A DNA stretch of 64,000 bases from a virus, in the IMG/VR virus record IMGVR_UViG_3300035670_000143, positions 10,950-74,949 of that record; one strand, 5' to 3'. How positions within the stretch are numbered: the first letter of the stretch is position 1; each line of letters opens with the position of its first letter. The notes beneath the pieces are model-generated. The model saw only the letters and a program-made list of their open reading frames with translations, was not told where the DNA came from and did no database searches. A program made the position numbers and the translations under genes. Below are positions 58,517-59,068 of the stretch, piece by piece.

Positions 58517-58525
58517 CTAAAGGTC

Positions 58526-58650
58526 TGAGATAGGCTAGCCTCTATCCTTTCAGGTGAAGGGAAACCTGCAAATCTATTACAATCGAGTGTAATAATTTGT
58601 TAAGTCCGTTTTCTGGTACATTGCGCGGTTAAGGTTTCCCGCCTATCTCA
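58526..58650 (+). ncRNA. Candidate structured RNA A (ends 4 nt before tRNA-Lys)
   Basis: TGAGATAGGC/GCCTATCTCA (10 bp) and GGGAAACCT/AGGTTTCCC (9 bp) enclosing the hairpin GCAAAT..ATTACA/TGTAAT..ATTTGT. Confidence 0.55.
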
Positions 58651-58654
58651 ATTT

Positions 58655-58726
58655 GACTCAGTAGCTCAATGGTAGAGCAGTAGACTTTTAATCTATTGGT
58701 TGTAGGTTCGAGTCCTACCTGGGTCA
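58655..58726 (+). tRNA. tRNA-Lys(UUU)
   Basis: Cloverleaf GACTCAG/CTGGGTC, anticodon loop CTTTTAA, TTCGAGT T loop. Confidence 0.95.
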
Positions 58727-58800
58727 CTTTGTTCATGGGGTCAAGAATAGACTGTATCTCTCTATTCGGGAATATTGGGGCATCCCCTGCCGTAAAACAA

Positions 58801-58829
58801 ACAACCTGAGTATGTTGTAAAAGTGCTCA
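58801..58829 (+). ncRNA. H-type pseudoknot in the tRNA spacer
   Basis: S1 ACAAC/GTTGT, L1 C, S2 TGAGTAT/GTGCTCA, L3 AAAA. Confidence 0.5.
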
Positions 58830-58833
58830 CAAT

Positions 58834-58906
58834 GCTTCTATAGCTCAATGGATAGAGCAACGGACTTCTAATCCGTAGGTTGTAGGTTCGAGTCCTACTG
58901 GAAGCA
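58834..58906 (+). tRNA. tRNA-Arg(UCU)
   Basis: Cloverleaf GCTTCTA/TGGAAGC, anticodon arm ACGGA-CTTCTAA-TCCGT. Confidence 0.95.
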
Positions 58907-58908
58907 CT

Positions 58909-59039
58909 GAATCAGGCAATACGTTTGTTTCATACAGTACATTTTTATTATCAACAAAAAATGGAATTGAATATCGGCAAGTTAGTTCGCTTACTTGTTC
59001 GTGCTGTATGGATTGTTCACCAAACGTATTGCCTGATTC
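58909..59039 (+). ncRNA. Candidate structured RNA B (starts 2 nt after tRNA-Arg)
   Basis: Perfect 19-bp inverted repeat GAATCAGGCAATACGTTTG, inner 12-bp stem, two apical hairpins, T-rich tail. Confidence 0.6.
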
Positions 59040-59068
59040 TTTATTTTATTGTCAAGTTAGGAGGAAGT

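Follow-up and report, generated by a model that had tools for sequence, protein, structure and literature searches.

General features of the locus

The virus record IMGVR_UViG_3300035670_000143 of IMG/VR is 74.9 kb long and has an estimated completeness of 72%. The window analysed here is the 64,000-nucleotide stretch that covers bases 10950-74949 of this record, and coordinates given without a prefix refer to it. The source virus is an uncultured tailed phage with a genome of approximately 100 kb; complete genomes of related phages are 95-99 kb in size and have terminal repeats. The + strand of the window codes for a tail protein, a DNA polymerase, a DnaB-like helicase, an exonuclease and the large subunit of the terminase. 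It also carries four tRNA genes, Leu(UAA), Ile(UAU), Lys(UUU) and Arg(UCU), all on the + strand. The anticodon of tRNA-Ile (57659-57731) is UAU, and the tRNA set of the phage reads A-ending codons alone (UUA, AUA, AAA and AGA). DNA of the window type is present in sequencing runs from subsurface or soil, freshwater and wastewater. Two of the runs (X19 and X20) are labelled RNA-Seq and flagged as probably DNA; they are represented by contigs, so they cannot show RNA ends.

The cassette follows a lysozyme-like gene of 204 amino acids (57902-58516, + strand; Pfam SLT_3 and SLT, both near threshold) that is syntenic across all cassette lineages. This SLT gene has a 94-nt leader (57808-57901, + strand) that contains two invariant hairpins and a ribosome-binding site. 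The leader is 92-97% identical among the window and the related loci L078, L005 and L081, and is more conserved than the SLT gene. Other SLT relatives lack the leader, Rfam has no match to it, and it may be a cis-regulatory RNA. Directly 3' of tRNA-Ile, a consensus scan found the candidate promoter TACACA-17-TATAAT on the + strand (57736-57764, with TATAAT at 57759-57764). The TATAAT is invariant in four lineages (alignment A12) and is part of an extended -10 element (TGA-TATAAT) in L005 and L081. The motif suggests a putative transcription unit that would start here and comprise the SLT gene, RNA A, tRNA-Lys, the spacer, tRNA-Arg and RNA B.

Downstream of the cassette lies a gene of 222 amino acids (59069-59737, + strand) that starts with the ATG at 59069. 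By tblastn synteny this gene is judged to lie outside the cassette, because elsewhere a gene of 143 amino acids separates RNA B from its homologue. The 143-aa gene (MYxPxDFxxxTMHAxKYLW...) follows RNA B in four other lineages and is missing from the window (59040-59068); in L005 (4230-4658), L078 (4295-4729) and L081 (2087-2521) the homologue of the 222-aa gene comes next. Nine relatives of the 143-aa protein were found, and precomputed annotations list no Pfam domains for them.

Arrangement of the modules around the tRNA genes

A preliminary description of this DNA, made from the sequence alone, had given the order RNA A, 4 nt, tRNA-Lys, a structured spacer, tRNA-Arg, 2 nt, RNA B and a T-rich tail. 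This layout is confirmed by the sequence, ARAGORN and Rfam. Both tRNA genes, tRNA-Lys(UUU) (58655-58727, + strand, 77.1 bits) and tRNA-Arg(UCU) (58834-58907, + strand, 77.2 bits), are detected by ARAGORN and Rfam, neither encodes its CCA end, and the tRNAs are 92-100% identical between lineages. RNA A starts 9 nt after the stop codon of the SLT gene. The T-rich tail (59040-59050, + strand) lies between the closing helix P1 of RNA B and, directly adjoining, the ribosome-binding site of the next gene; the tail is U-rich in four of the five lineages and weaker in L081.

The distances between modules and tRNAs are fixed. The end of P1 of RNA A lies 4 nt (ATTT) from tRNA-Lys, the discriminator of tRNA-Lys lies 1 nt from the start of S1 or S2 (the modules of the spacer region described below), and the discriminator of tRNA-Arg lies 2 nt from P1 of RNA B. 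The distance from the end of S2 or S3 to tRNA-Arg is 3-4 nt, and all of these spacings are constant among the lineages. The earlier proposal that every element boundary sits at a tRNA end holds for helix ends, which in every lineage are found 1-4 nt away from tRNA ends, but not for the 5' end of RNA A, which is not set by any tRNA and counts against release of this RNA by tRNA processing.

RNA A and RNA B are linked to this particular pair of tRNAs. Among the relatives searched, they occur only beside the tRNA-Lys/tRNA-Arg pair, and both RNAs are missing from relatives that lack the Lys and Arg tRNAs, two complete genomes among them. No flanking modules of this type are present around tRNA-Leu or tRNA-Ile of the same phage, a point against the release model proposed below. 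RNA B adjoins tRNA-Arg even where the next gene differs: it is kept in the window, which has no 143-aa gene, and thus is not part of the downstream gene. In L074 (65-219), a tRNA-Asn(GUU) located 6 nt upstream of tRNA-Lys occupies the position of RNA A, and the sequence downstream of tRNA-Lys is near-identical to that of L078 except for S3. On the sequences compared, this pattern indicates probable recombination at tRNA borders.

Homologues and distribution

Homologous cassettes were found in four other metagenomic phage lineages: L005/L006, L074, L078 and L081. L005 and L006 are identical at the cassette. A search with the SLT protein returned 26 related viral loci, of which only L005 and L006 have the order Leu-Ile-SLT-Lys-Arg, and a 19-nt motif from the spacer retrieved L074, L078 and L081 from metagenomes. 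One contig from a wastewater run is an L078-like variant. An N-terminal extension of protein P0004 resembles the translated 3' half of RNA B, a similarity that hints at a possible further lineage.

The preliminary description had regarded the RNAs as undescribed, and a search of Rfam agrees, as only the tRNAs pass the gathering score. No other relevant match was obtained at E<=10 over 56000-59500 or at E<=1 in the four related loci. This search covered GOLLD, ROOL, 6S, Y RNA/YrlA and the known ribozymes and riboswitches, none of whose covariance models matched. A 'distant' blastn search against 50,697 GenBank phage records matched the tRNA parts only, and RNA A, S2 and RNA B queried singly against these records gave no match. 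Scans of IMG/VR with RNA A, RNA B and S2 motifs returned the L005/L006 contigs and chance matches (L031, L034-L071, L089-L092), which were judged by reading, ARAGORN and model R1. The S3 motif has no match in viral or genome contigs, and the S2 and SLT-leader patterns gave chance matches or none in genome contigs. The known distribution is narrow: a single group of uncultured phages with about four to five lineages.

RNA A and RNA B as conserved RNA structures

RNA A (58526-58650, + strand) folds into a multi-branched junction. It is closed by P1 (58526-58535/58641-58650) and contains the P2 hairpin (58538-58555, loop CCUUU), P3 (58559-58567/58632-58640), the variable P4 hairpin (58568-58600) and P5 (58606-58628). 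The predicted fold has a free energy of -40.4 kcal/mol (z = -3.85), and none of 200 dinucleotide shuffles is equally stable. The same P1-P5 architecture appears in the single-sequence fold of every homologue. In the consensus from four lineages that are 68-78% identical, 96.5% of the cells of 36 pairs are paired, compared with 32-51% in controls in which the pairing was slid. Two unpaired motifs, UUAAGUCC and GGUUAAGG, are conserved.

RNA B (58909-59039, + strand) consists of two coaxial helices of 19 and 12 bp, a large asymmetric loop and one tetraloop hairpin, an architecture that likewise recurs in the single-sequence folds of every homologue. P1 (58909-58927/59021-59039) is a perfect 19-bp closing helix; the other parts are a conserved 8-nt internal loop (59013-59020), P2 (12 bp, 58929-58940/59001-59012), an A/U-rich loop with the conserved motif GGAAUUGAAUAUCGGC after it, and the tetraloop hairpin (58976-58999). 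The fold (-48.3 kcal/mol, z = -8.25) is not equalled in stability by any of 200 dinucleotide shuffles. In an alignment of five sequences from about four independent lineages (59-90% identical), 97.9% of the cells of 40 consensus pairs are paired; moving the 3' partners lowers this to 31-43%. Double-sided changes are found in 8 of the 19 pairs of the closing helix. The tetraloop of the inner hairpin is UUCG in some lineages; in L005 it belongs to the GNRA class.

The claim that RNA A and RNA B are conserved at the RNA level is borne out by compensatory changes, which occur in 10 of the 36 pairs of RNA A and in 12 of the 40 pairs of RNA B, counts that come from few and related sequences (about four independent lineages) with structures derived from the same alignments. 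The covariation score of each RNA was matched by none of 500 shuffles. The two had also been described as sharing one architecture. They do share a long closing helix, but the rest differs, A being multi-branched and B coaxial. The + strand folds better than the - strand in nine of nine comparisons, and for RNA B it is the more stable strand in all lineages. About 23 cells in the RNA B alignment are G·U pairs, which on the opposite strand would be A·C mismatches. The G·U cells, the strand difference in stability and the tetraloop swap point to selection acting on the + strand RNA and not on a DNA palindrome.

P1 of RNA B is 19-21 bp long with a 'loop' of about 93 nt and has a U-rich run after it in four of the five lineages, but the consensus scan does not call it as an intrinsic terminator. 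In every lineage the end of RNA B is about 7-25 nt from the next ribosome-binding site, leaving no room for a promoter; RNA B may hence just remain joined to the downstream mRNA as its 5' end, a point against its release. An ATG in the loop of RNA B was rejected as a coding start, since in L005 it gives only Met-Glu-stop. Some start codons within RNA B are in frame with the downstream gene, with the result that mechanical ORF calls run through the RNA; examples of this annotation artefact are a 270-aa TTG ORF in the window (58925-59737) and an 18-residue N-terminal extension of protein P0004.

The spacer and the optional modules

The spacer between the two tRNAs (58728-58833, + strand) is 106 nt long. 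Its core, S2, measures about 103 nt and has a 7-bp hairpin, a hairpin with a GGGG/CCCC stem and a 3' hairpin. The view of the spacer as a structured element fares less well on thermodynamics, with a fold z of -0.82 and 37 of 200 shuffles as stable, but its core sequence is strongly conserved. S2 is 85-98% identical between lineages, compared with 77-86% for the adjacent SLT coding DNA, and the case for the spacer, as read from these alignments, is one of sequence conservation and not of thermodynamics. Only two compensatory pairs were found, both in the 7-bp hairpin, because so little of S2 varies. The columns of the ACAAC/GUUGU pseudoknot proposed earlier are invariant in all five lineages, so that this pairing is neither supported nor contradicted. 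A 24-codon ORF in S2 was rejected as coding, as its reading frame is broken in L005.

Two further modules are present in some lineages. S1 is a hairpin-closed module 3' of tRNA-Lys in L005 (3818-3887), L074 (220-297) and L078 (3803-3880); the base of its helix, AGAGAUG...CAUCUCU, is kept, and the interior differs in L005. S3 is located 5' of tRNA-Arg in L078 (3975-4065) and L081 (2754-2842, minus strand) and has a 15-bp closing helix with three compensatory pairs; its 27-nt loop region shows no difference between these two lineages. Both S1 and S3 fold better than shuffles (z about -3). Given the relationships of the flanking proteins, their distribution requires repeated gain, loss or exchange.

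Comparison with known RNAs

The closest parallel is found in the tRNA cluster of phage T4, which encodes two non-coding RNAs, RNAC (species 1) and RNAD (species 2), of 119 and 139 nt. They are real transcripts, made together with the tRNAs, to which no function has yet been assigned (PMC3014915, PMC9697503). The preliminary description had invoked these RNAs as a precedent, which is valid by position: in T4, rnaD starts 1 nt after tRNA-Arg(UCU) and rnaC comes next, and RNA B likewise lies immediately 3' of a tRNA-Arg(UCU) in a phage tRNA cluster. Unlike in T4, the RNAs described here are modular and are found on both sides of the tRNAs as well as between them. Homology to rnaC or rnaD was considered and rejected, as MAFFT finds no similarity and models R1 and R2 have no match at E<=10 in the T4 tRNA region (L072). 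T4 RNAC has a tRNA-like T-arm, whereas RNA A, S2 and RNA B show no tRNA-like signal. A tRNA-like or tmRNA identity was rejected as well: with 75% thresholds and introns allowed, ARAGORN gave only inconsistent, spurious calls, none of which recurs across lineages.

GOLLD and ROOL are also structured non-coding RNAs found near phage tRNA islands. Many members of GOLLD exceed 800 nt, and tRNAs can sit inside its linker (PMC12286853). Unlike GOLLD and ROOL, which are long and have Rfam models of their own that find no match here, the present modules are 70-140 nt in size and fold independently.

Functional RNAs that tRNA-processing enzymes carve from tRNA precursors are also found in bacteria. In E. 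coli, 3'ETS-leuZ and internal transcribed spacers act as sponges of small RNAs; these tRNA-spacer sponges are short, bacterial and Hfq-dependent, and their small RNA partners are known. By position, RNA B resembles a 3' external spacer with a helix and a U-tail, and S2 an internal spacer. Like RNase III processing hairpins and the stem-loops that stabilise mRNA 5' or 3' ends, the modules are long, irregular helices between genes, which in those systems delimit or shield the ends of transcripts. RNase III sites need about 20 bp or more of helix, and by their helix lengths RNA B (19 + 12 bp) and S3 (15 bp) would be candidate sites. The RNase III sites in the early mRNA of phage T7 are simple hairpins of about 60 nt that have no conserved branched interiors and, unlike the modules here, are not tied to tRNA ends.

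Proposed processing and function

From the structures, their conservation and strand, the spacing and the linkage to the Lys and Arg tRNAs, we infer a model in which the modules would be transcribed, cleaved from the precursor, stable and active in trans. Since the modules are packed tightly against the tRNA genes, the enzymes that trim tRNAs would probably excise them as small stable RNAs. The cassette would be co-transcribed with tRNA-Lys and tRNA-Arg, with RNA A, S2 (and S1 and S3 where present) and RNA B each closed by a terminal helix. RNase P would cut at the 5' ends of the tRNAs, and the CCA-less 3' ends would be processed by an RNase Z/BN-type cut or by exonucleolytic trimming. The products would be helix-capped, exonuclease-resistant RNAs of about 105-140 nt with short overhangs, presumably made by the same route as RNAC and RNAD beside tRNA-Arg of T4. 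We give even odds to this reading, in which the modules are analogues of the T4 RNAs: small RNAs closed by a helix and freed by RNase P together with the processing of tRNA 3' ends.

Once released, the RNAs would probably work in trans, with their conserved single-stranded loops contacting a partner that may be protein or RNA. A trans-acting partner is suggested by the conservation of unpaired motifs, namely GGAAUUGAAUAUCGGC and the 8-nt internal loop of RNA B, UUAAGUCC and GGUUAAGG of RNA A, and most of S2. A search for antisense targets in the phage window gave only chance-level matches of 8-10 nt, a result that counts against this reading.

The modules could instead act in cis. Excision of the tRNAs from a polycistronic transcript would leave the SLT mRNA with an exposed 3' end and the downstream mRNA with an exposed 5' end, which RNA A and RNA B, respectively, would cap. 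The long helices may in addition serve as RNase III sites or as a leaky terminator, and no function in trans would be required. This is the main and a serious rival explanation, although we hold it to be somewhat unlikely. It agrees with the positions of the two RNAs: 9 nt separate the SLT stop codon from RNA A, and in all lineages the next ribosome-binding site comes 7-25 nt after the end of RNA B, a gap too short for the downstream gene to have its own promoter. P1 and P2 of RNA B form a near-continuous helix of about 31 bp that precedes the U-rich tail, and the tRNA-Asn in place of RNA A in L074 implies that RNA A is dispensable for tRNA-Lys. However, S2, the most conserved element, sits between two tRNAs and therefore has no mRNA end to cap. 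A protective hairpin needs neither the conserved unpaired motifs nor the multi-branched folds, and tRNA-Leu and tRNA-Ile, which are embedded in the same transcripts, have no such caps.

Within the model of released, trans-acting RNAs, a more specific and rather doubtful proposal is that the modules are putative counter-defence or host-takeover RNAs riding on tRNA processing, either as helix-capped decoys that titrate a host factor acting on the flanked tRNAs or by titrating a host RNA chaperone or RNase. The tightest constraint would then fall on S2 as a binder, with S1 and S3 as accessory decoys that can be exchanged. Anticodon nucleases of the PrrC type target tRNA-Lys(UUU), and colicin-D-type nucleases target tRNA-Arg.

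It is very unlikely that the whole cassette is one composite, ornate RNA that displays embedded and unreleased tRNAs in the manner of the GOLLD linker. Such a reading would fit the location of GOLLD and ROOL near phage tRNA islands and the tRNAs that the GOLLD linker can contain (PMC12286853), and all modules here are co-oriented and tightly spaced. The 534-nt cassette as a whole also folds better than shuffles (z = -5.3), but this full-length fold consists of independent modules without long-range pairing between them. No GOLLD or ROOL match is seen even at E = 10, modules are gained and lost independently (S1 and S3, and RNA A replaced by tRNA-Asn), and the tRNAs, at 77 bits, look fully functional.

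That the inverted repeats act as DNA, being MITE-like insertions, a recombination site or a protein-binding site with incidental RNA folds, is highly improbable: RNA B does contain a perfect 19-bp inverted repeat, and S1 and S3 are discrete palindromic units, present or absent, that need at least two events each, but a search for a MITE or palindromic repeat family found only self-matches in the 75-kb record, each element is single-copy there and in related records, no target-site duplications are visible at the borders of S1 or S3, and the G·U pairs, the more stable + strand and the UUCG/GNRA swap described above are features of an RNA.

Implications for phage tRNA islands

Phage tRNA islands have repeatedly been found to harbour structured RNAs that await a solution, RNAC and RNAD of T4 having done so for some 50 years, with GOLLD and ROOL as more recent cases. 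The locus adds at least three new small RNA families (RNA A, S2 and RNA B), along with two optional modules, S1 and S3, and the conserved leader of a gene. The new families belong to a known, unexplained kind, that of structured RNAs linked to phage tRNAs. They are supported by covariation or strong conservation, and their sizes suit direct biochemistry. With its fixed spacing of 1-4 nt from the tRNAs, the locus offers a concrete model, open to testing, for RNA release punctuated by tRNAs in a bacterial virus. If the modules act in trans, they would offer a handle on the role of tRNA-linked phage RNAs; if they act in cis, they would show how a phage protects mRNAs that are cut by tRNA excision.
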